This document shows, in pieces, positions 9,354 through 42,346 of a stretch of DNA of 42,346 bases. Under the pieces are notes generated by a model, which was given only the letters and a program-made list of their open reading frames with translations, did no database searches and was not told the DNA's origin. Source of the stretch: Candidatus Woesearchaeota archaeon (GTDB lineage Archaea > Nanobdellota > Nanobdellia > SCGC-AAA011-G17 > PNOQ01); the NCBI GenBank assembly GCA_018663865.1, contig JABJPM010000017.1:1-42346 (forward strand). The letters run 5' to 3'. The first letter of the stretch is position 1; each line of letters starts with the position of its first letter. The position numbers and the translations under genes were made by a program.

Positions 9354-9817
9354 TTACCTTCCTCCCCAAGAGTCAATCTTTCATCAAATTTTGAAAAATC
9401 GATGCAAATATAAATCTCCTGATTTTCAAAATTTGGATAATCAACGCAAGTAGATCTATGTCCAGTAAAACTAGAATCCCCTATAAAAAATTGACCATTA
9501 TAATCAACAACGTAGCACGCACCATAAATGGGATAAAATATATTTTTTGTTTCTTTGATTAAAAGATCTTTATTTCCAGTTAGTAACCAATCATTAACCA
9601 AATCTCCAATTATTTTATCATCTTCGACAAAAGAATTCAAATAAGATTCTAATACGAATATATTTTCATAAGAATAGATTGCATCATCTACTCCAATTTC
9701 ACTTTCGACATTATCCCCTCCAAATCCAATAAAAATTACCAGCAATATGGCCAATAATACTGCAATAAGAATAAAACTGAATGCATCACTAAGTGTTGTT
9801 TCGCCACGTTTATACAT
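9344..9817 (-). CDS. Pilin-like protein (class III signal peptide)
   Basis: KRG|ETTLSDAFSFILIAVLLAILLV. Confidence 0.7.
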   Translation of the reverse strand: MYKRGETTLSDAFSFILIAVLLAILLVIFIGFGGDNVESEIGVDDAIYSYENIFVLESYLNSFVEDDKIIGDLVNDWLLTGNKDLLIKETKNIFYPIYGACYVVDYNGQFFIGDSSFTGHRSTCVDYPNFENQEIYICIDFSKFDERLTLGEEGKCF

Positions 9818-10280
9818 TTGTAATCACCTTAAAATCCATAAACCCATTTTTCAAATCCCCATTCTCTGAAATTATGACCAATTTTCGAGTATCATAGCAA
9901 TCGTATTTAGCAGTCTTTAAGCCACAAACAATTTTTTGTGCAACCATCTCCTTATTTAATTCAACAATTCTAATTTCGCTCCCATTAAGATGGTATAAAT
10001 TCATCTGTACCCCATTAAAAGTATTGAAACAACTCTTTAATCGCCCCTCATTAAAATTATTTAAATTTAAAATTCCATTTTCTAAACCAATACAAGTTTC
10101 AGAATCCAATAATCGATAAACTATGGAGTGTTGCTCCAAATTAGACGTTTCAACATCTATCTTCACTCCGTGAGTAAAAACTAAAATGATAAATACTACT
10201 ACAAAAATTATCACAAATGCATAAAAAATCATTTTCAATTGCTCTTTCTCATAAACTTGTCCTTTTTTTCCAATATCCAT
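9810..10280 (-). CDS. Pilin-like protein (class III signal peptide)
   Basis: KKG|QVYEKEQLKMIFYAFVIIFVVVF. Confidence 0.7.
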   Translation of the reverse strand: MDIGKKGQVYEKEQLKMIFYAFVIIFVVVFIILVFTHGVKIDVETSNLEQHSIVYRLLDSETCIGLENGILNLNNFNEGRLKSCFNTFNGVQMNLYHLNGSEIRIVELNKEMVAQKIVCGLKTAKYDCYDTRKLVIISENGDLKNGFMDFKVITNV

Positions 10281-10672
10281 TATTCTTCAACTCCTATCGC
10301 AGAAAAACCATATCGGTCTTTTACTAAAAAAATAGAATTATATTTTTTTACATCGAGCGAATAAATCGGCGAGTTCGAATCTTTTGAACAATAATATTTT
10401 GATCCTGCTGTGCCACCGATACTGACAATATATTTACATTCATCTTTGAATCCAACATAATAATCCGCATCATTTAAAAAATATTCAATTGCATAATCCC
10501 CACTATCAAATCCAATCAATAAATCTGTAGCGAGTCCAAAATCATTAACAATTAATTTTTCATTAAATGCGTCACCATTGGAAGATTTTTCCATAACATA
10601 CAGCATTGGGAGAAAAACAACTATAACAATAATAACATACGTGGACCAAAAATATATTCTTTCCTCAGCCAT
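10280..10672 (-). CDS. Membrane-anchored hypothetical protein in the pilin cluster
   Basis: Single N-terminal TM helix; no clear basic-G/A cleavage motif. Confidence 0.65.
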   Translation of the reverse strand: MAEERIYFWSTYVIIVIVVFLPMLYVMEKSSNGDAFNEKLIVNDFGLATDLLIGFDSGDYAIEYFLNDADYYVGFKDECKYIVSIGGTAGSKYYCSKDSNSPIYSLDVKKYNSIFLVKDRYGFSAIGVEE

Positions 10673-10711
10673 ATAATAATTCTTTTGAAATAGGCATTTA
10701 TATTACTTTTC

Positions 10712-11200
10712 CTACACTTCATTCAGTATCAAAGTATTATTGATAATTTCAATACTTAAATCTACATATTCTCCTTGAGTTACAGTCACGATTTTGGAAG
10801 AATGAATAGTATTAATTTCATCAAATTCAAAAGTTGTTATTAATTCTGGGTTTTTGCAAGATTCTGGAGAATTATGCTCATCACATATCACTAAACAAGA
10901 TTTACCAAAACAGGCTGCAGGCCTTTCAAAAATACCTGATTTTTGGTTCTGCCCCATATCAAATGCAACCAAATAATGGCCATTACTCATGTAGAATAAA
11001 AAAGTAGAACTTTCACCATGTTGCATATTGTCTATAGTAGTCGACATAGCTGAAAGTGATTTTTCAGTTAATTGGGAAACATCAGGAAATAAAAATTCAA
11101 AAATTGAACTTCCGACATTAAATAAAAATAATAAAATAATTACTCCAAGTATTAACCCTACAACAGATTTTATACTCATATTTAATTGTGCCTTGCTCAT
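10712..11200 (-). CDS. Pilin-like protein (class III signal peptide)
   Basis: MSKA|QLNMSIKSVVGLILGVIILL. Confidence 0.72.
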   Translation of the reverse strand: MSKAQLNMSIKSVVGLILGVIILLFLFNVGSSIFEFLFPDVSQLTEKSLSAMSTTIDNMQHGESSTFLFYMSNGHYLVAFDMGQNQKSGIFERPAACFGKSCLVICDEHNSPESCKNPELITTFEFDEINTIHSSKIVTVTQGEYVDLSIEIINNTLILNEV

Positions 11201-11415
11201 TATGAAAATCCCGCCGTCAAATTTTTTGGAGTGCTATCTCTTGCAATACCCAAAAAATCGCCAACACTATCAAAAATTATACTAGATTGTCCACTAAATA
11301 TCATGAGAATTATTAATACTACAATAAGGATTATTAATAATTTTACTATATGTTCAATGGACATGCCTTGTCCACGGTTGTTATTCAAAAAAGAATAAAA
11401 AAAATTAAAATTCAT
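11200..11415 (-). CDS. Short pilin-like protein
   Basis: NRG|QGMSIEHIVKLLIILIVVLIIL. Confidence 0.75.
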   Translation of the reverse strand: MNFNFFYSFLNNNRGQGMSIEHIVKLLIILIVVLIILMIFSGQSSIIFDSVGDFLGIARDSTPKNLTAGFS

Positions 11416-11418
11416 TGT

Positions 11419-11763
11419 TTAACAAGATATTGATGAACACGAGACCTTTCCATTAGATACTAATTCAGCACATGTCATCTCTACAACATCCTCTCCGCCG
11501 CCAGAAATTTCAAAAACATTTGTACAGAATTGATTTCTTAAAGATTCATCGCCAACAGTATCGTACCTAGTACATAATCCATCACATTTCAAAATTGCTG
11601 CTTGAGCATCAATTGCTTGAGATTCCCAAATTTCATTCCACCAATCCATGAAATTTCCTGAGCCACCAGCTAATGCAACCACTAAAATAACTAAAACAAA
11701 AATTGCTAAGATCGTAATTATAATAGTATTGATAGAAAGTGTTTGACCTTTTTTATTATTCAT
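11419..11763 (-). CDS. Pilin-like protein (candidate major pilin)
   Basis: MNNKKG|QTLSINTIIITILAIFVLVILV; GAGGTGA SD before ATG 11763 and own TATA-like element upstream; six Cys. Confidence 0.8.
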   Translation of the reverse strand: MNNKKGQTLSINTIIITILAIFVLVILVVALAGGSGNFMDWWNEIWESQAIDAQAAILKCDGLCTRYDTVGDESLRNQFCTNVFEISGGGEDVVEMTCAELVSNGKVSCSSISC

Positions 11764-11816
11764 TATATTATCACCTCTAACCAATTATTATTGGATTATT
11801 TATTTAAATCTTTTGG

Positions 11817-12410
11817 TTAATCACAAATATTATTTGGGCCCTTTATAGAAAGAATTCCCTCACTAACAATGCAAATAGAATCAGAATTGGGTTTATAAAA
11901 AACATAATCTAAATTTACATTTTTCAATCCTTTATCAGAAGAAATTTTAACATTACTAGAAAAAAACAGAGTAATTCTGTCATCCTTAATATTTCCCGGA
12001 AATTCTAAGAAAACCCCATTTTTATCAAAGCAAGGAGTTACATCTCCAATCCATTTTTCTAAAAATTTTCCACCTTGATTATTAATAAAATTAAGGGACA
12101 TATCTCCCGCATCATCATAAAAATTCAAACTATAATCATTGGGAAATGAAAATCCCTCAACTTCACAAAAACAACTTTTCTTTGAACTATCCCTGCAATC
12201 ATATAAACTAGAAATCAATACATCTTCAACAAATTCCACTGAATCATCTTGGGTAGATTGTTCTTCCGCAGTTAAACTAACTTGAAATCCCAACATTTCC
12301 CGAATTTCGGAATATGCAGGCCCGGCCCATGCAAGGACCACTACAATCAAAATCAAAATCAGAATCGGTTTTACTATAGAATTTAAAACCATATCTCCGT
12401 TTTTATTCAT
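11817..12410 (-). CDS. Pilin-like protein (class III signal peptide-like)
   Basis: MNKNG|DMVLNSIVKPILILILIVVVL. Confidence 0.65.
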   Translation of the reverse strand: MNKNGDMVLNSIVKPILILILIVVVLAWAGPAYSEIREMLGFQVSLTAEEQSTQDDSVEFVEDVLISSLYDCRDSSKKSCFCEVEGFSFPNDYSLNFYDDAGDMSLNFINNQGGKFLEKWIGDVTPCFDKNGVFLEFPGNIKDDRITLFFSSNVKISSDKGLKNVNLDYVFYKPNSDSICIVSEGILSIKGPNNICD

Positions 12411-12568
12411 CCTCCGAACCTCACGACAGTTTTTAACTGTTTCAAAATATCTGAAACCCTATCATTTTGGTCCCCGATGATTAATAAAATTAAAATTAAT
12501 AAAATAATTAATAAAATCCAAACTCCCATTTTATCCCAAACAATTTCGGCTTTTTTACCGATTTTCAT
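12407..12568 (-). CDS. Minimal pilin-like protein, 53 aa
   Basis: Not in ORF track: MKIGKKA|EIVWDKMGVWILLIILLILILLIIGDQNDRVSDILKQLKTVVRFGG; overlaps both neighbours (ATGA coupling to the next gene). Confidence 0.78.
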   Translation of the reverse strand: MKIGKKAEIVWDKMGVWILLIILLILILLIIGDQNDRVSDILKQLKTVVRFGG

Positions 12569-13400
12569 TGCACCACTCCTTTATAGAATCTCCCGAACCA
12601 ATATTTAATCCAGCAATGTAATCCTCCTTCACTGTAGACATCATAAGAATAGAACTTCCCACTCCTATAGCCCCTCGAGCACATAATGATGCAACAAGAG
12701 ATGTAGCAATTCCTCCCGACCCATATATGGCCGCGCCGCATACCACAATACTTCCCACTCCAACCCCCAATTCAGTCCAAAATGCCGCATTATATCTTCT
12801 ATCCTTATCAATTAAAAATCCGACATATAGGGGTTCATCAGTACTAAAAACAGAAAAAGAATTTTGTAAATTATCTCCAATTTGGTTTGGCAAACCACCC
12901 CCATAAAAATACTCATAAAAAGTTATTTCTTCAGAAGATAGAGGAAGATTTTCAGTTTTTAAAAAATCATTAAACTCGCCCATTGACAATTCAGAATATT
13001 TATCTTTGACATCCTCATCAAAATCAATTCTGGAACAAACAAAACACCACTCGTCGCTACCCATGAAATCATTGTTATCCAAAAAATCTCGTTTTCCCTC
13101 TCCAAATTGATACCAACAATCATACATTTCATTAGTAATTTCCCCATAAATTTCATTCTTATCAGTAGATTTTATTTCAATCAAATTAGTTTCGCATACA
13201 ACATTATCTATTAATGTATTTCCAAGTATTTTGCTTCGTTCTTTCAACAACACACTATCTCTGCATGCTTCTCGATTCACACTATCCTCTCCGATCTGTA
13301 AAATAGTAGTTGTAGCAAAAAATAATATTCCTGCAACAATTATAACTGGAATAGCCACAACAATAACCCTCATCATTTCTCCTTTTTTATCAAGATACAA
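12555..13400 (-). CDS. Pilin-like protein with an additional C-terminal Gly/Ala-rich hydrophobic region
   Basis: Probable TTG start at 13400 after GAAGGTGG: DKKG|EMMRVIVVAIPVIIV; Cys motifs MYDCW and CFVCSRI. Confidence 0.7.
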   Translation of the reverse strand: MYLDKKGEMMRVIVVAIPVIIVAGILFFATTTILQIGEDSVNREACRDSVLLKERSKILGNTLIDNVVCETNLIEIKSTDKNEIYGEITNEMYDCWYQFGEGKRDFLDNNDFMGSDEWCFVCSRIDFDEDVKDKYSELSMGEFNDFLKTENLPLSSEEITFYEYFYGGGLPNQIGDNLQNSFSVFSTDEPLYVGFLIDKDRRYNAAFWTELGVGVGSIVVCGAAIYGSGGIATSLVASLCARGAIGVGSSILMMSTVKEDYIAGLNIGSGDSIKEWCNENR

Positions 13401-13512
13401 TTGAATCCACCTTCCCAGTAACAAACATATAGAATAAAAAGATAGATACCATTATTAAAACTAAAATGAAAATTTCCTTAAGATATTCATCCAAAACCCC
13501 TTTTTTATTCAT
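13390..13512 (-). CDS. Minimal pilin-like protein, 40 aa
   Basis: Not in ORF track: MNKKG|VLDEYLKEIFILVLIMVSIFLFYMFVTGKVDSIVS; TATA-like TTTATAA upstream. Confidence 0.72.
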   Translation of the reverse strand: MNKKGVLDEYLKEIFILVLIMVSIFLFYMFVTGKVDSIVS

Positions 13513-13543
13513 ACTTTTCATTTTAATTTATTACTTTATAAAT

Positions 13544-15688
13544 TTACCCGCCAACAGCCCCAAGGGTAGTCGCAGCAATCCTTCCGAAAATTAATACTGA
13601 AATTAAAGTAACAACTAAATAAATCATTGTCCCTTTAATGAGATTCTTTCCAACACTATTCTGTTCACTTAATTTATCTACCCCAAATTCTATGCTATTA
13701 GCCAAAACAGTCAAAATATAAATTATCTGAACAACATAAATTCCAACAACAACTTGAAACCAGTATCCTGGAATTGCATCCGCTTTATTGAATAATTCAG
13801 AAAACGTAGATAAGTCCATTCCACCACCTGCAGACAATGCAGAATTATCTTGCAATCCTGATAATCTATCACTTAATTTTGAAATTACTCCTACAATCAT
13901 GCTAGATATTCCTACAACAATTCCAGAAATTACCGGCGCCATAAAATTAATTTGACTCTTCATACTGGATATTATTTCAGACAATAAATCTTTCAATCGT
14001 TCATTAACACTATGGACATTGCTAACATAATTAGATATGCTCGTTAAAGATTGTGCAACAACAGTTGGGCCCTTCCTAGAACTCTCAATTAATACTTCCA
14101 TAGAACTCTCTACAAGAGGACTAGGATAATTTAATAACGCACCATTGTCTGGATTGAAAATCGCTTCCCTTAAGTCCATGCCAGCCTTTGTAAGATTTAA
14201 ATGGATCTTTTCAAAGAATTTTCCAGCAGGGGTGCCACTCATGGTTTTGGCAACATCTTGAAAAGCTAACTCTGAAGGAATACCATCTCCAATCCTTGTG
14301 CCAAGTTGGAATAATGCAGTAGAAAACTCCTTTTCTAATTTTTTAGTTTCATTTCGAATAAACATTGCTTTTTTAGTTTTGGATTTATAATATAGCCCAA
14401 TACTCAACGCAATTCCTAGTGGAATAAACATTCCAAGAATGAGTGCCCCTAAACCAAATGGACCAATACATCCTTTTTCATTACAATCAAAATCCAAAAA
14501 TGATTCTCCGACACCATCTGAATTTTTCCAGAATTCAAAATCATAAGCAGGATTTATTGCATTAACTATAAATGGTGAGATCCCTATTAAAAACAACAAA
14601 ACAAACAACATAACTGAAAAAGTGAATGCTCCTTTTTTTCTAGATAAATCTACATTCATTTCACCATAACTTCCAGGGCGCTTGGACAATATATTAACTC
14701 CAGAATTATATACAATTATTGGCAAAAGAACATTATAAACTGCAAATAAATAATACCACTTAACCCCTGGTATAAATGCCCCAATTAATGGGAAGATGAC
14801 CAAACCTAAGATTGGCAATATTACCCCTAGCATATGTAGCATAGTTATAGGATTTTTTAAATCCTGAGCATAATGCAACATTCTTTCATAAGTTCCATCC
14901 AAAATAACTTTCAAAGATTTATCAAGCAATTCCAATCTTCGGTCTTCACTTGGTTCATACAAACTACTTTCAACTAAATGAAAAGAATTAACAAACTCTA
15001 GATTATATTCTCTCCACTTTCCAAGATAATTTTCCAAAGAATCTTTCAGAGTTGAATACTTTCCAGTCTCAATATCCCAAAATACTTTTTTCAAATCTAA
15101 CGAAAGAGGATCAGAAATATGGTCTGCCGCAAATTTGATCGCGTTTTCCAGATTTGAAGTATGCCTCATATAAATAACAATATATAACAAACATAAAACC
15201 ATCTGATTGCCTGCTGCCAATCTCCACTTATCTGCCAATCGAAGTGGATATCTAGTAATTGGACCAATTATTACAACAGAAATTAAAATAAATACCATTG
15301 ATAATAATAAAAGACCCATCTGGCCTGTTGCAAAATAAGATACTGCTCCAACAATTAAACTAAGAATTACTAATATGGATGCAAAAACCATTGCAAAACT
15401 AGCTGCACCCACTGGAGTCATATTTAAATGTGCAATGGCAATGCTTTCCTCAATTTTTTTAATATCCTTTTCAGAAGGATTTACTTTAATTATATCTTCA
15501 GAAAAATTACAAAATTTTTCATAAGTAGTATTTGTTTTTCCGAGTGCTTCTTTTCTAAAAGCCAAATATTGTTTAGAAAATTTTGGATCAGGAGAATAAC
15601 TTCCAACACCTTCCAAATTAACATTTTTATCTAATTTGGTTTTATATTTATCCAATACTTCATCAATTTCTTTATTTGAAATCGGCAT
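13544..15688 (-). CDS. Type II/IV secretion platform membrane protein (TadC/ArlJ-like, two T2SSF-like halves)
   Basis: Multi-TM protein with two cytoplasmic repeats (SNLENAIKFAA; GIPSELAFQDVA), directly downstream of the ATPase. Confidence 0.85.
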   Translation of the reverse strand: MPISNKEIDEVLDKYKTKLDKNVNLEGVGSYSPDPKFSKQYLAFRKEALGKTNTTYEKFCNFSEDIIKVNPSEKDIKKIEESIAIAHLNMTPVGAASFAMVFASILVILSLIVGAVSYFATGQMGLLLLSMVFILISVVIIGPITRYPLRLADKWRLAAGNQMVLCLLYIVIYMRHTSNLENAIKFAADHISDPLSLDLKKVFWDIETGKYSTLKDSLENYLGKWREYNLEFVNSFHLVESSLYEPSEDRRLELLDKSLKVILDGTYERMLHYAQDLKNPITMLHMLGVILPILGLVIFPLIGAFIPGVKWYYLFAVYNVLLPIIVYNSGVNILSKRPGSYGEMNVDLSRKKGAFTFSVMLFVLLFLIGISPFIVNAINPAYDFEFWKNSDGVGESFLDFDCNEKGCIGPFGLGALILGMFIPLGIALSIGLYYKSKTKKAMFIRNETKKLEKEFSTALFQLGTRIGDGIPSELAFQDVAKTMSGTPAGKFFEKIHLNLTKAGMDLREAIFNPDNGALLNYPSPLVESSMEVLIESSRKGPTVVAQSLTSISNYVSNVHSVNERLKDLLSEIISSMKSQINFMAPVISGIVVGISSMIVGVISKLSDRLSGLQDNSALSAGGGMDLSTFSELFNKADAIPGYWFQVVVGIYVVQIIYILTVLANSIEFGVDKLSEQNSVGKNLIKGTMIYLVVTLISVLIFGRIAATTLGAVGG

Positions 15689-17966
15689 TATTCACCTCTG
15701 TTTCCAACCATTCTTTCCACCTAAATAAGATTCTTTTGGTATTAAGTTCACCGTATTTTGTTAAAACAGAATCGGAAATTTTATGAAACTGATCATTGGC
15801 CGCAATAACAAATGGAGCCTCCAAAATAGACGCTCTTTTTGTTTTATGATAACTCTTTAATAATTCCTCTTTTATAGTTTTCCTAAGTATGATGTTTTCC
15901 CATACTGCATCCCAATCTCCTGCCCACTCTTTAACATTACCTGCAATTTGTTTTATGATTTCAGAATCCCCATTTAGTAAACTATCCGTGGGTTCCAATT
16001 CATCTGTTTCGGGATTATAAAGCATAAGATCTACAAATCCCCCTTCTTTTTGAGGATCATCATCCCATTCTTTTCTTACTTCAGTAATACTCAAAACTCT
16101 CCTCAATTTTTTTAAACCATCTGGAGATTTGATGGGGTTAGAAACCACAATTATATCTGTTGCTTTAAAACTTGTTCGTGGAACTCCCAAATCATTTACA
16201 ACCCTGTCAAAGATAGAATACGGGCTACCACCATGAATCGTTCCTGCAACAACATTCGCCAATGCGCCAACCCTCATGGCCTCATAAAGTGCTAATGCCT
16301 CTTTACTTCTTACTTCACCAACAATTAAACTACTATCTCCCAATCTTAAACTTGTTCTAATTCCTTCTTCCGCAGATAATTCCGTTCCGCCTTCCATTAA
16401 TGCGGAACGCACTTTCAGAGGCTGTATATTATATCCTAATTTTCTTAATGAACCTACTGGCAACTCCAAAGTATCTTCCACAGTAATTACTCTTGCCTTT
16501 CGCATAATCTCCACCATTGCAGCCCCCAATAATGAAGTTTTACCGCTACTCCGGGTTCCAGCGAATAACATTGTTCTTCCACCATCTATAAAAAAACTAA
16601 GTAATGCGGCCCCCATTGAATTTATCATTTTTTTGTCCATAAATAATGGGAATGTCCATGGATTGTCCCTATGCCTCCTAAAAGCATATCCTAATCCAAC
16701 CGGATTCAGGGGGGAAGTAATTATTGCCACTCTCGCCCGTGCGCCCGGAATAATTAATTCAGTATCTAAAACTGGATTTGCCTCATCGAGTGGCCTTCCG
16801 GAAATTAATCTAAATTTTGTAGCCCATCCCTCTCCATCCCTTTTACTAGGAATGATATTTGTCGAACAATCACCATAATCTTGATGAACTATATAGATTG
16901 GGCTTTCACCAATCGGACCATTAACTACAATATCCTGTATTTTTTCATCTGCCAAGATTATTTCCAGCAACCCAAATCCAACAGTATATCTTACCAAAAT
17001 TTTAGCTAATTTTTCAACTGTAGAATATTCAAGATCAATTCCTTTTCTTTGTGCCAACTCCCCAATAAGGTCCCTCCCAATATTAAAAAAGGTCTCCCTC
17101 GTCCTTTCAGGATTGGTAAATTCTTCAGCAACAGGTTCGTGTTCAGCTAAAACCGTTCGAGCAAGATCCAATAATTCTAGATAATCTTCACTCAAATTGA
17201 ACTCGGGTGGCGTCAAATGATACCTTGGTTTAATATCATCATCCAAATCAAAAATCATAACTGATGCATCATCATTCAAAAGATAGCTATCTATTTCTCC
17301 TGCATTCATCGGCGGTTCAGCCATCATCCGTGTGTGCATAAAATTTGGCGAAATTAGAGGTTTGAAATAATTTGAGTAAATTTTTCTATCCCCTATAACA
17401 AATCCATCTAATTCATCTTTTGTAAGAGAAATTAATTTTGTTTTTTCAATTAAATCAAACATTTCTTGTAATGTTTTCAAATAAGTATCTTCTTGGGTTT
17501 TTTCAAAATCAGATTCGATTTTGGTTAATTTAATCTTTTGTTCTCGAATCAATCTTTTTAATTCAACATATGCACCAATAGGATCGGACCTAATTAAATT
17601 CGTAACAATATATTGTAGTTCCCCAAACCTATTAGAAACAGAATTTGAATATCCCGGATCCATCCCTGTAGAGTATAAACTAATAACTTTTTTTTGTTTT
17701 GTTAAATAAACATAAATATTTGCAATTTCCCTCAACATTTTAGTTTGTTCTACATCATATAAATAATTCTTGTCTGCAGAAAGAACTAATCTAGAAATAT
17801 TTGGACTTTCAACAATCCTATCAATTATAGATGCCATACATAATTTATTATTTTCAATTGAAGGCGGATACGACAATCCAATGAAATTCACTTTCATAAT
17901 ATGGTCATCGCCCTCTTGTACGATTTCATATTCCCCGGGTTTCAATTTTTTTCTAGAAATTGACAT
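15672..17966 (-). CDS. Type II/IV secretion ATPase (TadA/ArlI/VirB11-like) with N-terminal extension
   Basis: Walker A GTRSSGKTS, ITVEDTLEL, SLRLGDSSLIVGEVR, GTIHG; start 17966 (GGTGA SD) or 17990. Confidence 0.95.
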   Translation of the reverse strand: MSISRKKLKPGEYEIVQEGDDHIMKVNFIGLSYPPSIENNKLCMASIIDRIVESPNISRLVLSADKNYLYDVEQTKMLREIANIYVYLTKQKKVISLYSTGMDPGYSNSVSNRFGELQYIVTNLIRSDPIGAYVELKRLIREQKIKLTKIESDFEKTQEDTYLKTLQEMFDLIEKTKLISLTKDELDGFVIGDRKIYSNYFKPLISPNFMHTRMMAEPPMNAGEIDSYLLNDDASVMIFDLDDDIKPRYHLTPPEFNLSEDYLELLDLARTVLAEHEPVAEEFTNPERTRETFFNIGRDLIGELAQRKGIDLEYSTVEKLAKILVRYTVGFGLLEIILADEKIQDIVVNGPIGESPIYIVHQDYGDCSTNIIPSKRDGEGWATKFRLISGRPLDEANPVLDTELIIPGARARVAIITSPLNPVGLGYAFRRHRDNPWTFPLFMDKKMINSMGAALLSFFIDGGRTMLFAGTRSSGKTSLLGAAMVEIMRKARVITVEDTLELPVGSLRKLGYNIQPLKVRSALMEGGTELSAEEGIRTSLRLGDSSLIVGEVRSKEALALYEAMRVGALANVVAGTIHGGSPYSIFDRVVNDLGVPRTSFKATDIIVVSNPIKSPDGLKKLRRVLSITEVRKEWDDDPQKEGGFVDLMLYNPETDELEPTDSLLNGDSEIIKQIAGNVKEWAGDWDAVWENIILRKTIKEELLKSYHKTKRASILEAPFVIAANDQFHKISDSVLTKYGELNTKRILFRWKEWLETEVNNADFK

Positions 17967-18052
17967 ATCACCACTCCCCTTTGACAACATAACTTTTAAT
18001 ATACATCTATGTAAATAAATACATAGTATTATTAAATACTTTTCGATTTAAA

Positions 18053-32852: not shown

Positions 32853-34325
32853 TTATTCACAAAATTTCATTAATTTAACATCTCTAGTTTGTAGACTTAC
32901 CAATGGGACTCTGCAGGGTTCAGGATGGTGTCCGACTTTTTCCTGAAATTTAGTAATAGCTTGCCAACAACTTCCAGAAATTAAAGTTGTTTTACCATAA
33001 TGGCTGACGCTTGATTTATGGATGTGCCCTGAAGCAAAAAAATCAGGGACATCTTTGATTATTAAATCATCTCTGTCGGGTTCAACTACGAATAATGTTG
33101 AACCATGGGATGGCGCAAGGTGCCTTTTTTTCATTAAAAATTTCATAACTAAATCTGCACGATCATATCCTCCTTGTTCCCTGATACTTTCAACCTGGTC
33201 AATATAATAATCAAAACTATATCCATGATACATTAAAACATTAAAACCCTCAAAATTATCTTTTGATCCGATATTGACTACAGCGGGATTACTTACAATA
33301 TGGACATTATCCATTGCGTAAAGATTACTTGCAAATTCCTCATCGAGAACTGGTTGAGGTTCGGCCAATCTTAGTGCGTCATGATTTCCGGGGCAAACAA
33401 TAATTTGTAAATCGCTCCGCATTTTGGAAAAATAGTGCGCACATTGATCATATTGATCTTTTATGTTGGGAATGGATAATTCTGCCTCCTGATTAGGATA
33501 GATCCCTGCACCATCTACAATGTCACCTATAACAAATAAATATTTGACAGATTTTGCCATTTTTTGTTGCTCTTCACTACCAGAATTACCATTTATCCAA
33601 TCTATGAATTTTTCAAATTCCTTTTCCAAAAACATATCGGACCCGACATGTATATCGGAAATAAATGCGGCATGCTCATTAATTATAGATTTTTTCATAA
33701 TATTATCTTCGATTTTGACATCGGGAAAAAATAATTCATTTACAAATACAATCTTGTTCCCCATGTTGCCAACCAGCCCTATTACTTCATCGGGCACTAT
33801 ATCCTTCGCCATATCAAAAATTTCTTTTTTTGTTGAATTTATTAAAACTTTTATTTTTCCAGTTGGATCTTCAATTTCTAACATTACATTGCCATTTTTT
33901 GTCATTTTTTTACTATATACTAATCCAATCAAGGACACCTTTTCTCTTTGCATTTTAGAAAATGTCCTACTAACAGACATAACATCTGTCAATTCAATTC
34001 TGCCCTGCAATAATTTACTCATAAATTTATATCTTGTCCTGTAATGTTCGATAAAATGCCCGATTTCTATTTTACTTAATTTATCTTCATATGAATCTAT
34101 AATTTTAACATTCCCAATTAAAGGAGATTCACCCTGTGAACTTGAATTTTCACATTTTAAATATTTTAATTTTAATTTGTCTAATATGGACTTATTCAAT
34201 ACTTGACCCCTAATCTCATTGGCATGGCCATTGATTAAATCAAAAGAGGAATCATCAATCAAACTAATCACATCGGGATCAAGAAATATCCCCTCATCCA
34301 TCAAATTTTTTATTTTTTCATTCAT
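32853..34325 (-). CDS. polB: DNA polymerase D small subunit DP1 (proofreading exonuclease)
   Basis: SDIHVGS, GDIVDG, PGNHD, YHG, RHLAP, GHIH; ATG 34325 overlaps the cdc6 stop (ATGA). Confidence 0.97.
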   Translation of the reverse strand: MNEKIKNLMDEGIFLDPDVISLIDDSSFDLINGHANEIRGQVLNKSILDKLKLKYLKCENSSSQGESPLIGNVKIIDSYEDKLSKIEIGHFIEHYRTRYKFMSKLLQGRIELTDVMSVSRTFSKMQREKVSLIGLVYSKKMTKNGNVMLEIEDPTGKIKVLINSTKKEIFDMAKDIVPDEVIGLVGNMGNKIVFVNELFFPDVKIEDNIMKKSIINEHAAFISDIHVGSDMFLEKEFEKFIDWINGNSGSEEQQKMAKSVKYLFVIGDIVDGAGIYPNQEAELSIPNIKDQYDQCAHYFSKMRSDLQIIVCPGNHDALRLAEPQPVLDEEFASNLYAMDNVHIVSNPAVVNIGSKDNFEGFNVLMYHGYSFDYYIDQVESIREQGGYDRADLVMKFLMKKRHLAPSHGSTLFVVEPDRDDLIIKDVPDFFASGHIHKSSVSHYGKTTLISGSCWQAITKFQEKVGHHPEPCRVPLVSLQTRDVKLMKFCE

Positions 34326-35536
34326 ATACTGAGCCACCCACGCAATTGAGAAATTAATCCAGGTATACTTGACTGCGGCATGGCAAGACCAATTTCCTTT
34401 GTACGCCCATATCGCCCCTTACTAATAACTTTAGCATTGATTATACCCAACATGTCTAATTCTGCAATTAGGTCTGACAATCTCCTTTGTGTTAAAGGTT
34501 TTAATCCGCATTTTATGCAGAGGTTCATATATACCTCATATACATCTCCAGTAAAAAATTTCTCATTACCTTTTTTTTCATATAGATCAAAAATCGCCAA
34601 TAAAGTTAATTGTGATTGTTTAGGCAAGGTATTTATTACCTCTACAACTAAATCATTTTCTATTTTTGATTCAGCCTCATCAATATGCACTATATCCACT
34701 TTCAAATCATTTTTTCGTTCAGCTAGCTCCCCTGCAACCCTCAATAGATCTAAGGCCCTCCTGGCATCACCATGCTCCCTTGCGGCATAGGCAGCACATT
34801 TTTCAATTACTCCCTCAGAGATAGAGCCATCTTTGAATGCACCTTTTGATCTTTCAAGTAAAATATCTTGCAATTGTAATGCATTATATGATGGAAAATT
34901 TAAATCCTCCTCTGCGAGAGAAGATTTTATTCTCGGATCAAGATCGTTTGCAAACCGGAGATCGTTTGATACCCCTACAAATGTCACCTGAGTATTTTTT
35001 AATTCTGCATTCATCCGGGTTAAATTATAGAGAATTTCATCTCCTGCCTTTTTTACTAGTTGATCAATTTCATCAAGAATTAAAATTATTTGATTAGGGC
35101 CAGCCTCAATATTTTTTATGAATAATCGGTAGACTTCATCAGTAGGTAATCCTGTGACAGGAATATTCTTTTGCCCAAACTCTCTAGCCAAACTAGCAAT
35201 GAGCCTATATTCTGTATCTGCAACCCTTTTTAATTTACAATTAATATAAACTACTTTTAAGGGTAAATCCTTACTATTGGAAATCTCCCTAAGATTATTT
35301 GTTACATGCAATACTGACAAAGTTTTTCCAGTACCAGTTTTACCATATAGAAATAAATTTGAAGGTTTCTCATTTCTAAGTACTGGGGCAAGGACACCTG
35401 CAATCTCATTAATCTGCTCATCCCTGTGAGGGATAGTGTCCGGAGTATAACTTGTTTGCAAAATCTTTTTATTTTTGAAAATCGATTCTTTTCCAAGGTA
35501 ATCTTCAAAAAAATTTTTTATCCCATCTTTTGTCAT
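34322..35536 (-). CDS. cdc6: Cdc6/Orc1 replication initiator
   Basis: GKTGTGKT, ILDEID, HGDARRALDLLR, C-terminal wHTH with KGRYGRT. Confidence 0.97.
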   Translation of the reverse strand: MTKDGIKNFFEDYLGKESIFKNKKILQTSYTPDTIPHRDEQINEIAGVLAPVLRNEKPSNLFLYGKTGTGKTLSVLHVTNNLREISNSKDLPLKVVYINCKLKRVADTEYRLIASLAREFGQKNIPVTGLPTDEVYRLFIKNIEAGPNQIILILDEIDQLVKKAGDEILYNLTRMNAELKNTQVTFVGVSNDLRFANDLDPRIKSSLAEEDLNFPSYNALQLQDILLERSKGAFKDGSISEGVIEKCAAYAAREHGDARRALDLLRVAGELAERKNDLKVDIVHIDEAESKIENDLVVEVINTLPKQSQLTLLAIFDLYEKKGNEKFFTGDVYEVYMNLCIKCGLKPLTQRRLSDLIAELDMLGIINAKVISKGRYGRTKEIGLAMPQSSIPGLISQLRGWLSI

Positions 35537-35598
35537 TTTATTTTTCAAAATAGAAAATATCTATTTAAACATTGTTATATTTGAAAATAGACTCCTAG

Positions 35599-35618
35599 CC
35601 CTTCATTTCCTTTGGAAC
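35599..35618 (-). promoter_or_regulatory. Origin recognition box (ORB)
   Basis: Minus strand GTTCCAAAGGAAATGAAGGG, similar to the archaeal consensus GTTCCAGTGGAAAC...GGGG. Confidence 0.8.
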
Positions 35619-35640
35619 AATAAATTTAGAAAAAAGCATA

Positions 35641-35667
35641 CCCTTGAATTTTTATTTCTAGTAGAAA
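35641..35667 (-). promoter_or_regulatory. Degenerate ORB/mini-ORB
   Basis: Minus strand TTTCTACTAGAAATAAAAATTCAAGGG. Confidence 0.5.
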
Positions 35668-35688
35668 AATGCCCTGAATACAATTGAA

Positions 35689-35895
35689 ATATATATACTA
35701 TATAATATATTTATATAATATATATATAATATAATAATAAAACTTAAAAACAAAAATTTAATTAAAAATTAAAAATTTTTCAAATATATGCCAATACAAA
35801 CCTCCTACTGCCATAATAATATAATATAATATAATATAATATAATTATTATCGAAGATAAAACAAAAACAAAAACAAAAACAAAAAAATAAAATG
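35689..35895. repeat. AT-rich DNA-unwinding element with (ATAAT)n and (AAAAAC)n microrepeats
   Basis: TA-rich run 35689-35742, about six ATAAT units near 35816-35845, about four AAAAAC units near 35858-35887. Confidence 0.75.
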
Positions 35896-35910
35896 GACTC
35901 CATTAGAAAT
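35896..35910 (+). promoter_or_regulatory. Mini-ORB-like element
   Basis: GACTCCATTAGAAAT. Confidence 0.5.
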
Positions 35911-35926
35911 TTTAATAATTAAACAT

Positions 35927-35955
35927 CTCCACTGGCAACAAAGGTCCGGGGGGGT
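35927..35955 (+). promoter_or_regulatory. ORB with G-string
   Basis: CTCCACTGGCAACAAAGGTCCGGGGGGGT. Confidence 0.75.
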
Positions 35956-35995
35956 AAACCATAATTTTATATATTAATTAAAATATTAATAATAT

Positions 35996-36289: not shown

Positions 36290-36345
36290 GAAATTTTTAT
36301 AAACATATGCCTAATTACAATATATAATAAGGAGGATTGCCCAAA

Positions 36346-36606
36346 ATGGTTGATGATAAAAAATATGCAAAACAAATTTTAGGGAAAGTGGTAGTGAGTA
36401 AGGCCGGAAAAAGATTCGGAGAAGTAGGTAATTTAGTTTTTGAAACAAGGACTGGAGAATTATTACAAATTATCTTAAAAAATCCAACTGGTTTTACAGA
36501 AGGATTGGATTTAGAAAAAGATGCCACTGGAAATCTATTAATACCTCATAGCTCCGTCATAGCAGTAGGGGATTTTATAGTAGTAGCGGAAGAAGATATA
36601 ATCTAG
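36346..36606 (+). CDS. PRC-barrel protein, CdpB1-like cell-division factor
   Basis: ILGKVVVSKAGKRFGEVGNLVFETRTGEL...LLIPHSSVIAVGDFIVV. Confidence 0.85.
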   Translation: MVDDKKYAKQILGKVVVSKAGKRFGEVGNLVFETRTGELLQIILKNPTGFTEGLDLEKDATGNLLIPHSSVIAVGDFIVVAEEDII

Positions 36607-36649
36607 AAAGTTTTATAAATAACATGATAACATCAGGAAGGTGATAACA

Positions 36650-37054
36650 ATGTCAATAGTAGGATTCAATTTTGAAAAAATAATGGTAGAAAAAAAGAAT
36701 AAGGTTAGCTCTAATTTGAAAATCAAGAGCAATCTATCAATAGTGGACATAGAGAAAGAAAACTTGAATTTAACAAGTGCAGGAGATGTATTAAAATTCA
36801 ATTTCGAATATGGAGTGGATTACGAACCAGAGATTGGGAAAATTGTCCTAAATGGTAATTTATTATATATGGAAGATCCAGAAAATATTAAAAAAATATT
36901 GGAAGATTGGAAAAAAGATAAAAAATTGCCCAAACCATTAATGGCACAAATATTCAATACCATTTTGGCAAAGAGTAATATCAAAGCACTTTCCTTGACT
37001 CAAGAGGTTAATCTGCCACCGCATATAAAATTACCAATTTTAAAGAATAAATAA
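36650..37054 (+). CDS. Conserved archaeal hypothetical protein (possibly SecB-like fold)
   Basis: Four beta-strand-like segments, helix, and NLPPHIKLP end; AGGTGA SD. Confidence 0.7.
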   Translation: MSIVGFNFEKIMVEKKNKVSSNLKIKSNLSIVDIEKENLNLTSAGDVLKFNFEYGVDYEPEIGKIVLNGNLLYMEDPENIKKILEDWKKDKKLPKPLMAQIFNTILAKSNIKALSLTQEVNLPPHIKLPILKNK

Positions 37055-38600: not shown

Positions 38601-38876
38601 ATGCCAAAAATAAGCGATAAAAAAATAGAAAGAATAAAAGAAGGAATAATCTCTTACCTTTATGATCACCCTGCAAAACCATTATTTACTTCTCAAATAG
38701 CGGAAGAAATGATAAGGGACGAGGAATTTATTTTGAGATTGTTGAATGAGCTCTATGCTTCAAAATTAATAAAAAAAATATCTTCAAATTCAAAAGGAAA
38801 GGAATTTTTATCGAGGAGAAAATGGACCTTAAGGGCAGAAGTATATACAAAATATAGTGAATTGGTAAATAACTAA
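38601..38876 (+). CDS. Small winged-helix DNA-binding protein
   Basis: IISYLY..PLFTSQIAEEMIRDEEFILRLLNEL..KLI...RRKWTL. Confidence 0.72.
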   Translation: MPKISDKKIERIKEGIISYLYDHPAKPLFTSQIAEEMIRDEEFILRLLNELYASKLIKKISSNSKGKEFLSRRKWTLRAEVYTKYSELVNN

Positions 38877-38931: not shown

Positions 38932-39001
38932 CAATTCATTACTAATCAATAACCGATCAATCAATCACCAATCAATCACTAATTAATCACTAATTAATCA
39001 C
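38932..39001 (+). repeat. Intergenic direct-repeat array, 11-bp unit YAATYAATCAC
   Basis: Four exact tandem units at 38958, 38969, 38980 and 38991; two degenerate units at 38932 and 38943. Confidence 0.9.
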
Positions 39002-39174
39002 GCACCATGGATACTCATATTTACTTGCCTAATCAACATAAAACTAGATCAAACGTTCTTATTTTCTGGCTTTCTCACAAATACACTTAGAAATCGGGCC
39101 TAACTTTCACTTAATACATATATTAATCTCATAAAACTATAAAAATGAACCCTCACTCTTTATTTTTGAGATAG

Positions 39175-39864
39175 ATGGATGAAAAAATTCTAAAAAAAGC
39201 TTTTGTAAAAGTAAAATCAGATATTGAAAATTTAAATAATAGGTTGGAAAATATTGAAAATACCCTGAATTTACTCATTTCTATCAAAAATAATCAAAAA
39301 AACACTAAAAACGATGGAAGTTCCAGTGGAAATGAAGGGGTCCGATCAATCAATCATTCAACAAACAATCAATCAATCACTAATCAATCACGTGCTGAGC
39401 ACAAAATCGGGCAGTATACCCCTCAAATAAGCCATAATTATGATAATTTGGAACGATCTGATCAATCACTGAGCAATCAATCACTGAGCAATCAATCCCT
39501 TTCTAAACACTCACTAAGCACTCAAAAATTAAATATTCAATCACTCAAGAAGGATCTAGAAAATCGATTTAATGCCCTCACTAGTCAAGAATTTCTAGTA
39601 TTTCTTACAATATATCAAATGGAGGAGGACCTTAAACGGCCAGTGACTTATAATGATCTATCTGAACGTTTAAACCTCACTTCTGGATGTATTAGGGGGT
39701 ATGTAAGTGCATTAATCAGGAAGAATTTACCCCTCACAAAGGCAAAAATAAACAACAGAACATTGACATTATCCATAAAATCTGATTTCAAAGAGTTAAA
39801 TCTCAAACAAAAATTAACAAATATCTACTATGATCAAGATCCAGATCAAACAAAACTATTTTAA
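39175..39864 (+). CDS. Coiled-coil + repeat linker + winged-helix protein
   Basis: N-terminal heptads; S/N/Q-rich linker; LTSQEFLVFLTIY...VTYNDLSERLNLTSGCIRGYVSALIRK wHTH. Confidence 0.8.
   Translation: MDEKILKKAFVKVKSDIENLNNRLENIENTLNLLISIKNNQKNTKNDGSSSGNEGVRSINHSTNNQSITNQSRAEHKIGQYTPQISHNYDNLERSDQSLSNQSLSNQSLSKHSLSTQKLNIQSLKKDLENRFNALTSQEFLVFLTIYQMEEDLKRPVTYNDLSERLNLTSGCIRGYVSALIRKNLPLTKAKINNRTLTLSIKSDFKELNLKQKLTNIYYDQDPDQTKLF
39320..39341 (+). promoter_or_regulatory. ORB element embedded in coding sequence
   Basis: GTTCCAGTGGAAATGAAGGGGT; 18/20 identical to the ORB at 35599-35618. Confidence 0.7.
39347..39544 (+). repeat. Intragenic copies of the CAATCAATCAC motif
   Basis: Copies at 39347, 39370, 39381, 39459, 39474, 39489; degenerate at 39504 and 39534. 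Confidence 0.85.
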
Positions 39865-39933
39865 TTATGATTTCTAGTAAAAATTATTAATTGTTGCTAA
39901 TAAATTATTCATCGTCGATAAAACTACAATATA

Positions 39934-40004
39934 ATCGTTCACCGAACGTTCGGTGAACGTTCACCGAACTGTCTATAGACGTCACCGAACGTTCGGTGAA
40001 CGAT
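39934..40004. repeat. Palindromic array of GTTCACCGAAC/GTTCGGTGAAC 11-mers
   Basis: Units at 39937, 39948, 39959, 39980 (1 mismatch) and 39991; 24-bp perfect palindrome at 39936-39959; 23-bp perfect terminal inverted repeats. Confidence 0.92.
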
Positions 40005-40041
40005 GCAAAACGTTTATATAGGGGTAATATCAAATATAGGT

Positions 40042-40641
40042 ATGTTTAATTTTTTTAAAAGAGGAAAAAATGATCCAAGGCTCGCTGAAACTATTTCAAC
40101 AATGCAGGAGAGTTTAAAAAAATCATTTACAAATATAAAGAAAGATTTTTCGATGATGGATGGCCATAATAAAACATTCCATGAAAAGCATGAAAAACAC
40201 ACAATTGATCATGGGGAGCATCGAAAAAATATCCAATTGCTTGGTGAGAGGTTAAAATCAATTGAAGAGTCACTGGGCATACTAAAGGAGATAGAAATAG
40301 TGAATGAGGAAGTGAGTGGCGAAGTTGAGGCAGATTTTGGAAATTTAGAGGATATGACTGGGGTATCTCAGAAAATATGTTATGTTCTAGCAGCATTACA
40401 AAAAGAGAACAAAGGCATGGTGACCCTAAAAACCCTTGCAGAAGAAATGTATCCTGGAAAAGAGTATGCAAAAATTAGGTCAACAATATCGCAGTATACT
40501 ACGGAGTTAGAAGAATTGGGCTATGTCCAAAAAAAGAAAAAAGGAAAACAAGTATACATCAAATCTACTGAAAAAAACCCATTTCTAAGTGAGAAGTTAA
40601 CTCCGAAAAAGGTAACAAAAAAAATCAAAATAAAAAAATAA
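40042..40641 (+). CDS. Coiled-coil + winged-helix protein
   Basis: TTTATATA at 40013-40020 then ATG 40042; VTLKTLAEEMYPGKEYAKIRSTISQYTTELEELGYVQKKKKGKQVYI; Lys-rich tail. Confidence 0.8.
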   Translation: MFNFFKRGKNDPRLAETISTMQESLKKSFTNIKKDFSMMDGHNKTFHEKHEKHTIDHGEHRKNIQLLGERLKSIEESLGILKEIEIVNEEVSGEVEADFGNLEDMTGVSQKICYVLAALQKENKGMVTLKTLAEEMYPGKEYAKIRSTISQYTTELEELGYVQKKKKGKQVYIKSTEKNPFLSEKLTPKKVTKKIKIKK

Positions 40642-40642
40642 T

Positions 40643-40840
40643 ATGGTAAGAACAAAGAAAAAAGGAAAAAATAGGAAATATGTTTTTTCATTTGAGGATC
40701 CAGTAAACTTAATGTTGCATTTTATAGGGTTAATCATAATCATTTATGGGGCTTGGTTCCATAATGTTGCTTGGGCAGTTACAGGATTCATTCCAATGTT
40801 GGTTGGAGATTTATGGTTAAAAATACATTCAAAAGTCTAA
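40643..40840 (+). CDS. Small two-TM membrane protein
   Basis: Basic N-terminus and two hydrophobic segments; starts 1 bp after the upstream stop. Confidence 0.65.
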   Translation: MVRTKKKGKNRKYVFSFEDPVNLMLHFIGLIIIIYGAWFHNVAWAVTGFIPMLVGDLWLKIHSKV

Positions 40841-41056
40841 AAACTTTAATCAAATCTTAATACTTTATTTTTATGCATCCATAATAAATCTTTTTTCCAC
40901 ACTGTACAAATTAAGTTTATTGGATTAGTTTTCAACTTTTAATTTCCAATGGCGTGCCATTTAGATTATCTAACACATTTGAAAACAATTTATCATTCAA
41001 ATATTATCTTCTTAATTTTTCTAAAATAAAATATTTATTTACAAATCAATTATACA

Positions 41057-41359: not shown

Positions 41360-41531
41360 AGTATAATCTAGAAAAAATATTATATAAATGTTTCCATTTT
41401 GACTACTTCCCAGAAATAACACTATATCAAATAAATATTACAATCAAAAACTAAAAAATTCAATCAAAATCAAAATCAAAATCGAAATTTAAGATACATT
41501 TTTATACATTTTTCCAATAAGGTCAGTTATT

Positions 41532-41561
41532 GATTCCAATAAGGGTTCCCTTAATAGAATC
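41532..41561. other. Imperfect inverted repeat centred on TT, candidate recombination or binding site
   Basis: GATTC-caa-TAAGGG-TT-CCCTTA-ata-GAATC, 33 bp upstream of the recombinase ATG. Confidence 0.5.
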
Positions 41562-41594: not shown

Positions 41595-42346
41595 ATGGTC
41601 GAAAATAAATTAAAAACTGCAATCTATGTAAGGGTATCTACCGATGAACAAGCAAAAGAGGGGATCTCAATATCTGCTCAAATCGATAGGTGTCAAAACT
41701 ATTGCAAAGCGCGATCTTGGAAAGTAATTAATATTTATACTGATGCAGGATATTCTGCTGGTTCAATGAAGCGTCCAGCCGTCCAACAATTATTTCAAGA
41801 TCTACGTGAAAATAAATTTGAAAATATTTTAGTCTATAAATTTGATAGGTTCTCGAGAAATGTCAGAGACTTAATAACTTTTTTAGATAATCTGAAAGCT
41901 CAAGAAGTAAATTTTACATCTGTTACGGAAAATATAGATACTACGACTGCAATGGGGGAAGCATTTTTTCAGATGATTGGTGTTTTTGCACAATTGGAGA
42001 GGGGGATGGTAAAAGAACGAGTAAAGTTAGCATTCGATAAGAAAATTAGCGATGGAGAATCATTAAGTCGTGCACCAAAAGGATATATGTATAATAATGG
42101 GAAATTAATCGTCGACAAAAAAAATTCAAACGAAATAAAACAAATTTTTGATATGAGGGCGGCAGGAATACATTATAAAATAATCTCGGACAAATTCAAT
42201 ATTCCCATATCTACATTGTATAACATAATAAAAAATCCAACCTATGCTGGAAAAATAAAGTATAATGGTGAAATATATGAGGGAACTCATAGCGCAATCA
42301 TAGATCCCGCATTATTCAACAATCTAAATCCCTTGCAATCTATAAA
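41595..42346 (+). CDS. Serine recombinase (resolvase catalytic domain + recombinase domain), runs off window
   Basis: Not in ORF track: MVENKLKTAIYVRVSTDEQ...SAGSMKRP...YKFDRFSRN...AQLER...APKGY...KNPTYAG...GTHSAII. Confidence 0.95.
   Translation, partial: MVENKLKTAIYVRVSTDEQAKEGISISAQIDRCQNYCKARSWKVINIYTDAGYSAGSMKRPAVQQLFQDLRENKFENILVYKFDRFSRNVRDLITFLDNLKAQEVNFTSVTENIDTTTAMGEAFFQMIGVFAQLERGMVKERVKLAFDKKISDGESLSRAPKGYMYNNGKLIVDKKNSNEIKQIFDMRAAGIHYKIISDKFNIPISTLYNIIKNPTYAGKIKYNGEIYEGTHSAIIDPALFNNLNPLQSI

Follow-up and report, generated by a model that had tools for sequence, protein, structure and literature searches.

What does a 71-bp array of nested palindromes do beside a replication origin, directly upstream of a gene for a coiled-coil/winged-helix protein? 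The question is posed by a contig of 42,346 nucleotides from a Candidatus Woesearchaeota archaeon (the window), in which this element, array B, occupies positions 39934–40004, with no strand assigned. An earlier note on the same DNA had described a GC-richer island, bounded by 23-bp perfect inverted repeats and stopping 8 bp short of a TATA box, and each of these points is confirmed. The G+C content is 51%, against 31% genome-wide. No other perfect inverted repeat in the 594.5-kb genome whose arms are 100 bp apart or less has arms as long as these, of 23 nt each (39934–39956 and 39982–40004); the runner-up is a 15-nt, A/T-only repeat. The TATA box, TTTATATA, lies at 40013–40020. The count of five alternating 11-mers plus a palindrome holds for the alternation and the palindrome, but there are four perfect 11-mers and one 10-mer that lacks a T. 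Units 1–3 start at 39937, 39948 and 39959 (GTTCACCGAAC, GTTCGGTGAAC and GTTCACCGAAC) and units 4–6 at 39970, 39981 and 39991 (T plus GTCTATAGAC; GTCACCGAAC; GTTCGGTGAAC). The GTCTATAGAC palindrome is itself the sixth unit and shares a register of about 10.8 bp with the other five. Array B can be described as six phased quasi-palindromic units, of the GTTC-N3-GAAC type plus GTCTATAGAC, and is likely to be a binding array of the adjacent protein, B.

The worry, voiced earlier, that so long a palindrome might be an artefact of assembly is dispelled by Logan contigs from four of four runs, which belong to four studies, none of them flagged as the source sample. All bridge array B without a gap, with no listed difference inside it, and orthologous arrays are present in relatives, so the further fear that relatives would lack any such array is also unfounded. 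The stretch is present in marine metagenomes; no RNA dataset was found among the listed datasets that contain it, and Logan contig depth over 39000–40900 showed no usable step. The genome search proposed in the earlier note gave four copies of GTTCACCGAAC on either strand, all inside array B, and eight matches to GTTC-N3-GAAC, four in the array and four isolated. The latter motif is therefore rejected as the mark of a regulon or of scattered parS sites. Array B is a genuine, conserved element that occupies a single locus in its genome.

The neighbourhood is that of an origin. Pfam matches in the window include radA, RPA, PAN, DP2, DP1 and cdc6. The cdc6/orc1 gene (34322–35548, minus strand, identified by Pfam and followed by DP1 and DP2) has on its 5' side a canonical-looking oriC (35549–35995, no strand assigned), where origin recognition boxes (ORBs) flank an A+T-rich core, one on the minus strand at 35598–35617 and a weaker ORB-like box on the plus strand at 35927–35946. 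Gene A (39175–39864, plus strand, 229 aa) starts 3.6 kb from cdc6; then follow array B, the promoter of gene B and gene B itself. A and B are paralogous, their profiles converging on the identical 111 ORFs, and A too encodes a coiled coil, a repeat-encoded linker and a winged helix-turn-helix (wHTH). Within gene A lies an ORB with a G-string (39321–39340, plus strand), read in frame as SSGNEGV; by eye, its first 17 nt, reverse-complemented, are identical to a segment of the Pyrococcus ORB1 oligonucleotide given in the available text of PMC1904270. The ORB consensus with G-string is matched at 39321–39340 and 35598–35617 and not by array B.

Two further sets of repeats accompany gene A. Array A (38943–39545, plus strand) consists of TCAATCA/ATCACTAA repeats 5' of and within the gene and is likely to be read by protein A. 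By eye, the recognition helix of A appears to track the repeat word: GCIRGY occurs with CAATCA, GCIRSY or GCIRTY mostly with CATTCA, and SSVRD or SAVRD with CGACA or CAGACA repeats. Four polar CTCAC-type boxes, at 39151, 39576, 39675 and 39732 (39151–39738, plus strand), are degenerate copies of YYCTCACTTT. Pooled over 53 loci, this motif is strictly polar at +500 to +1000 of the A frame start, with 68 strict copies on the plus strand and 0 on the minus strand, and it is a candidate polar element between the ORB and array B. As a genome-wide KOPS-like word it was rejected, having 12 copies in a single-contig relative (G025) and falling outside the top skewed octamers. On the 5' side of A lies gene C (38601–38876, plus strand), which encodes a small conserved protein with 37 homologues in the fetched stretches.

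Several other features of the region deserve mention. A PRC-barrel gene and an unannotated 137-aa gene (window 36337–37054) stand between oriC and A in most relatives (41 and 47 matches). A second ORB occurs just 5' of gene A in G060 and G034, or between A and B in G045 (loci L075, L077 and L058). Farther away, a type II/IV secretion ATPase is followed by a run of unannotated genes (8211–17990), and together with a prepilin peptidase (3076–3945) this is probably a pilus locus.

Gene B (40042–40641, plus strand) encodes 199 residues, which were examined through an AF2 model, fold searches and homologues. Its ATG, at 40042, is preceded by the TATA box and by a purine-rich stretch, GCAAAACG, which we take to be a BRE (BRE-like stretch and TATA box together, 40005–40020, plus strand). 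The predicted structure (mean pLDDT 74.5) has a short hydrophobic and basic N-terminus (MFNFFKR), a long helix (residues 12–77), an acidic disordered linker and a winged helix (107–175), the recognition helix of which reads IRSTISQY. Pfam, NCBIfam and PDB sequence searches gave no family assignment, the last yielding coiled-coil noise only. The fold matches are generic wHTH proteins tied at Z 9–11: RosR, kleisin C-termini, MarR, TubR and Cdc6/ORC. RTP, a winged-helix protein, is absent from the fold matches listed.

A single-query search of 61 relatives found B in 35; A was found in 54 of the 61. The locus set consists of 58 fetched stretches, minus one without A and B, plus the window. The module is widespread in this large group of uncultured archaea: 227 of the 301 class genomes gave a match to gene A, some of the weaker matches perhaps being remote paralogues outside the module. 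Three of 40 gene B homologues bear a Woesearchaeota name. The layout is notably constant. An ORB lies inside one of the two paralogues in all 55 A-bearing stretches, cdc6 is upstream of A in all 34 in which it is on the same stretch, and B adjoins A in 53 of the 55, the remaining two ending close to A. B is in tandem with A in 27 loci and convergent in 26. By repeat score, the array is upstream of B in 26 of the 27 tandem loci, the lone miss being an A/T-rich array visible by eye, and within the coding linker of B in 26 of the 26 convergent loci, where it encodes peptides such as VQTAVQT and FMNVQ. This link between the orientation of B and the position of the array is a single event on the B tree. 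In both orientations the array is downstream of the ORB of A, the median distance being 760 bp in the 27 tandem loci and 805 bp in the 26 convergent ones.

The relatives' arrays are made of phased units, often direct repeats without long perfect arms, and the upstream arrays have periods of 11, 21–22 and 32. A universal array consensus, GT-N7-AC, failed for many relatives. A second A/B module, of type I (see below), is present in a genome from the same genus as the window (G005, contig C12, locus L079) and represents either contamination or a second cassette. Remote A-like genes without an ORB lie 200–400 kb from cdc6 in three genomes (G163, G100 and G129; loci L167, L168 and L169); two of them have a B-like hydrophobic and basic N-terminus. 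B itself gave no match in G100 and G129 and a weak one in G163.

Which protein reads the array is suggested by comparison of the B proteins. Their tree, computed with linker columns kept in the alignment, falls into three monophyletic types with full support, each with its own array motif: an STVRGQ-type helix goes with GTCCAAAC (17 loci), a VTVRRH-type helix with GAACGTTCAATC (11 loci), and an RST/RSM-type helix, that of type III and of the window, with the 11-bp array (28 loci). Within type III, a threonine after Arg/Lys-Ser in the helix accompanies CGAAC, CGAC or CTAC arrays (17 loci) and a hydrophobic residue accompanies TCACT-like arrays (11 loci), with no exception among 28. Helix residue and array class each change four times on the type III tree, and the helix of A is unlinked to array class (a 6/5/11/5 split). 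The classes were defined post hoc, and only two independent pairs fall on supported branches (p 0.5); the covariation is strong pattern evidence, not a significant test. Array B is very probably the cognate binding site of the winged-helix protein B, and the cooperative operator suggested earlier for the adjacent wHTH protein survives as a helically phased binding array, well supported by comparison of period and of sequence with the B helix.

The B types are dispersed over the cdc6 tree (34 rows), which rejects a type III clade (p-AU 8e-5), and the window's own family contains all three types. Thus B and its array travel as one exchangeable cassette. The cassette also persists away from the origin. 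One family (f7, seen in G030 and G057; loci L086, 8144–8829, and L087, 9977–10757) keeps B and its internal array and has several AACTCTCACTTT repeats where A stood; no match to A, no ORB in the place of A and no Cdc6_C match were found there. It is a candidate origin-less Woesearchaeota lineage, and B must therefore have a use without this origin.

On the far side of the module, many relatives carry the machinery of chromosome dimer resolution. Of 53 stretches, 26 have XerA downstream of the module and none has it upstream, and all four of the XerA proteins tested exceed the NCBIfam cut-off. Sites resembling dif, of 11-6-11 form and 1.7–5.3 kb past the start of A, are downstream in 22 of the 53 and upstream in three, a weak tendency; the consensus derives from these same loci, and many right flanks are short. 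The order oriC/cdc6, gene A with its ORB, array, XerA/dif is fixed. In the window's genome neither dif nor XerA was found in the 1.7 kb from B to the contig end, and XerA is on contig C15. A candidate dif at about 41509–41536 was rejected as lying outside the relatives' consensus. This TAA-N6-TTA inverted repeat stands just 5' of a large serine recombinase gene (41595–42346; CcrB-like, below the cut-off), which takes the place that XerA/dif have elsewhere, on the downstream side of the module, and may be that recombinase's site or operator. A downstream large serine recombinase is also present in L031, L032, L050, L069, L072 and L074.

A new and surprising addition to this picture is the one-signed skew of the chromosome; the earlier note had made no link to it, to the gene A ORB or to XerA/dif. 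G–C and T–A skew were measured at four-fold degenerate sites, per gene strand, and coding-strand bias therefore cancels. In G025, a single contig of 737 kb, each skew keeps a single sign over all 30 bins. The sampled bins of other relatives agree: 10 of 10 in G003, on both sides of cdc6; 12 of 12 for G–C and 8 of 12 for T–A in G058; 7 of 7 for T–A and 6 of 7 for G–C in G052. In the window's genome, each of nine contigs of at least 20 kb is one-signed in T–A, with a polarity that agrees with synteny to G003 in six of six. Skew polarity follows the orientation of gene A, the strand of which is always C/A-rich, even in G025, whose cdc6/oriC is inverted with respect to A. An excess of G over C marks the leading strand, according to the available text of PMC7858055. 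With the G/T-rich strand taken as leading, the fork would head toward the upstream side of A. Replication of the chromosome is probably mostly one-way in this lineage, although skew is an indirect measure of replication and the genomes concerned are kin, none of them B-less with the origin kept.

Where initiation might occur is constrained by the segment between oriC and A. Its skew has the sign of the rest of the chromosome in 28 of 31 loci; pooled, its plus-strand genes have G–C −0.215 and T–A −0.212, its minus-strand genes G–C +0.115 and T–A +0.217. This rejects a cdc6-adjacent oriC that fires in both directions and has its right-going fork stopped only at the module, and leaves initiation at the ORB of A or a one-way oriC with its direction set by the module. 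Evidence that the skew step lies at the module and not at oriC is marginal (12 of 15 genera, p 0.048; 15 of 22 loci, p 0.053). In six of six relatives with signal (G003, G058, G052, G018, G025 and G301), T–A skew upstream of A exceeds that downstream, which is what a leaky block predicts.

Not every carrier conforms. G196, assembled as one contig, carries the full module, yet its skew is not one-signed (G–C 0.008 ± 0.016) and shows a weak switch of the opposite sense, +0.069 upstream and −0.040 downstream. In G301, which has the full module and belongs to another order, skew is weak (G–C −0.079 ± 0.022, T–A −0.022 ± 0.015) and not clearly different from that of the module-less G057 (G–C −0.054 ± 0.024, T–A 0.006 ± 0.009). 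One-way replication is therefore not general among carriers of the module, or it has not marked every genome.

We tentatively favour the idea that the B-bound array acts as a barrier to replication forks behind the ORB of gene A, which would make replication mostly one-directional. Dimers or oligomers of B, joined through the long predicted coiled coil, might coat the six phased units. Cdc6 would load MCM at the gene A ORB, at the cdc6-adjacent oriC, or at both; the fork heading upstream of A would circle the chromosome, and the opposite fork would be stopped, leakily, some 0.5–1.2 kb past the gene A ORB. Termination and dimer resolution would consequently fall beside the origin, in one small region. 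In type III loci, the array abutting the promoter might double as an operator of B, by analogy with the ter sites of rtp and tus.

The barrier idea gains from the placement of the array downstream of the ORB of A in both orientations of B, and from family f7, where A, its ORB and Cdc6_C are missing together and G057 has no T–A skew. It also resembles a fork trap in having tandem sites that include one at the promoter of the putative terminator gene itself. The expected location at the end of replication fits G025, G003, G058, G052 and the position of dif/XerA; it does not fit G196 and is weak in G301, and the skews of these two genomes weaken the case. So does the near symmetry of array B, which has no evident polarity while a separate polar motif, YYCTCACTTT, sits between ORB and array. 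A further weakness is that the type III array is tied tightly to the TATA box and only loosely to the ORB (501–1207 bp).

This last property leads to the strongest alternative, that the array is only an autoregulatory operator of B. One-way replication, where present, would then be due to another part of the module: the polar CTCACTTT boxes, protein A and its repeats, or a lone gene A ORB that loads just one helicase. Only 8 bp separate the array from the TATA box, a BRE/TATA-like match lies 33–39 nt 5' of the gene B ATG in 25 of the 28 type III loci, and the site beside it has a sequence that tracks the recognition helix, albeit through few independent contrasts. RosR and MarR-type regulators are among the best fold matches of B, and B persists in f7 without the origin parts. 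According to the available text of PMC6742236, ORB orientation directs Cdc6 binding and MCM loading. Initiation at the ORB of A would fit the shared skew sign between oriC and A with no further block. Autoregulation, as the earlier note had proposed, is plausible in this B clade, given that BRE/TATA directly adjoins the array, but it cannot account for everything: 22 of the 28 type I/II loci have the motif only inside the gene, with no copy 5' of the B promoter, the other six having promoter-side copies too. Moreover, the array occurs once per genome here and in G025, so that B would regulate only itself, and the near-constant pairing of B with A counts against a purely regulatory role. As a complete account, an operator is on balance somewhat unlikely.

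The parS-like site of the earlier note remains as a rival in modified form, in which the array is centromere-like and B polymerises on it and ties the junction of origin and terminus to the membrane or a segregation machine, in the manner of TubR–tubC. RacA and Noc are analogues for such anchoring. The helical phasing, the single locus between origin and dif and the long predicted coiled coil would all suit this function; so would the hydrophobic and basic N-terminus, which is present in 48 of 56 B proteins and in only 10 of 541 long ORFs of this genome, and cassette swapping resembles the behaviour of incompatibility types. As in TubR–tubC (PDB 4asn and 6aht are among the fold matches), the gene of a wHTH protein is accompanied by a phased repeat array. 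TubR and kleisin winged helices (Z 9.5–10.7, TubR at 9.5) rank among many tied matches, however, within a background of unrelated wHTH proteins. The partition NTPase that accompanies binder and site in ParABS and TubZRC is missing near the module: Pfam matches among the 46 window proteins include no ParA or TubZ, the contig ending 1.7 kb past B. An anchor alone does not explain the skew. A centromere is thus a quite unlikely reading of the array.

Much less probable is an element that acts as DNA or RNA structure, either a cruciform, as had been suggested, or a hairpin terminator for gene A. The predicted fold is strong (z = −7.4, with no equally stable sequence among 200 shuffles) and the minus strand has a terminator-like stem at 39959–39936. 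A terminator-like site on the strand of gene A was not found here, though, and cruciform extrusion is unsupported in that relatives retain the repeats mostly without long perfect arms, while the array sequence tracks the helix of B. That the element is an assembly artefact or a chance palindrome is barely conceivable: palindromes are prone to mis-assembly and the check used contigs rather than raw reads, but the runs that span it come from other studies and orthologous arrays occur in many families.

If the fork-barrier interpretation is extended, a wider proposal, speculative but possible, is that essentially a single fork copies the main chromosome of many Woesearchaeota, with origin, terminus and dif within a few kilobases, and that a DPANN-specific coiled-coil/winged-helix pair sets the direction, the array being an archaeal counterpart of Ter with interchangeable protein–array specificity types. 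A main archaeal chromosome with one-signed skew, dif by the origin and a dedicated protein–array module would then be a new replication layout, and protein B would be the first candidate for an archaeal fork-barrier protein. The natural specificity types, in which a single helix residue corresponds to array class, allow binding to be probed directly on short oligonucleotides.

In the available text of a 2023 review (PMC10331603), chromosome replication in bacteria, archaea and eukaryotes is described as bidirectional, and the one-way cases given there and in PMC7858055 are plasmids and chromids. Titles and the opening parts of abstracts, in a literature sample that covered subscription journals thinly and excluded supplements, held no description of the module or of one-way replication in DPANN archaea. 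The accessible portion of the 2026 Ori-Finder-Arch preprint mentions Nanobdellota once and contains neither “skew” nor “unidirection”.

Known systems, as represented in the available parts of the sources cited, offer partial likenesses. In Thermococcales, an intragenic ORB3/mini-ORB cluster in dp1 likewise places a conserved Cdc6-type box within a gene a few kilobases from oriC (PMC1904270). That likeness concerns the ORB of gene A and not the array; the host gene there is a polymerase gene, and no cognate wHTH arrays accompany it. Archaeal XerA/dif shares with the loci described here the 11-6-11 inverted repeat and a XerA above the NCBIfam cut-off (PMC2958812), but dif lies 120–142 degrees from oriC in Thermococcales (PMC2958812) and 1.7–5.3 kb from gene A here. 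Closer to the array itself is RTP–Ter of Bacillus subtilis, with tandem sites for dimers, one of them in the promoter of its own gene (PMC10331603); indeed both rtp and tus have a ter site in their own promoter and are autoregulated (PMC10331603; PMC7858055). Array B differs in having six phased units rather than two half-sites and in forming a single locus by the origin, protein B differs in its N-terminal coiled coil, and the barrier role is here a proposal. In layout, the closest parallels are plasmid R1, where terRL/terRR adjoin oriR, and the Pseudoalteromonas chromid, in which ori2 has tus and dif as neighbours (PMC10331603; PMC7858055). In R1, ter sites beside the origin enforce one-way replication (PMC10331603). 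Those replicons are bacterial plasmids or secondary replicons that use Tus, whereas here an archaeal main chromosome is concerned, initiation is of the Cdc6/ORB kind and the coiled-coil/wHTH protein is unrelated, with one-way copying read from skew rather than from coverage. What the two have in common is a skew of one sign, a dif near the origin and, also near the origin, a terminator gene, for which B would here be the candidate.
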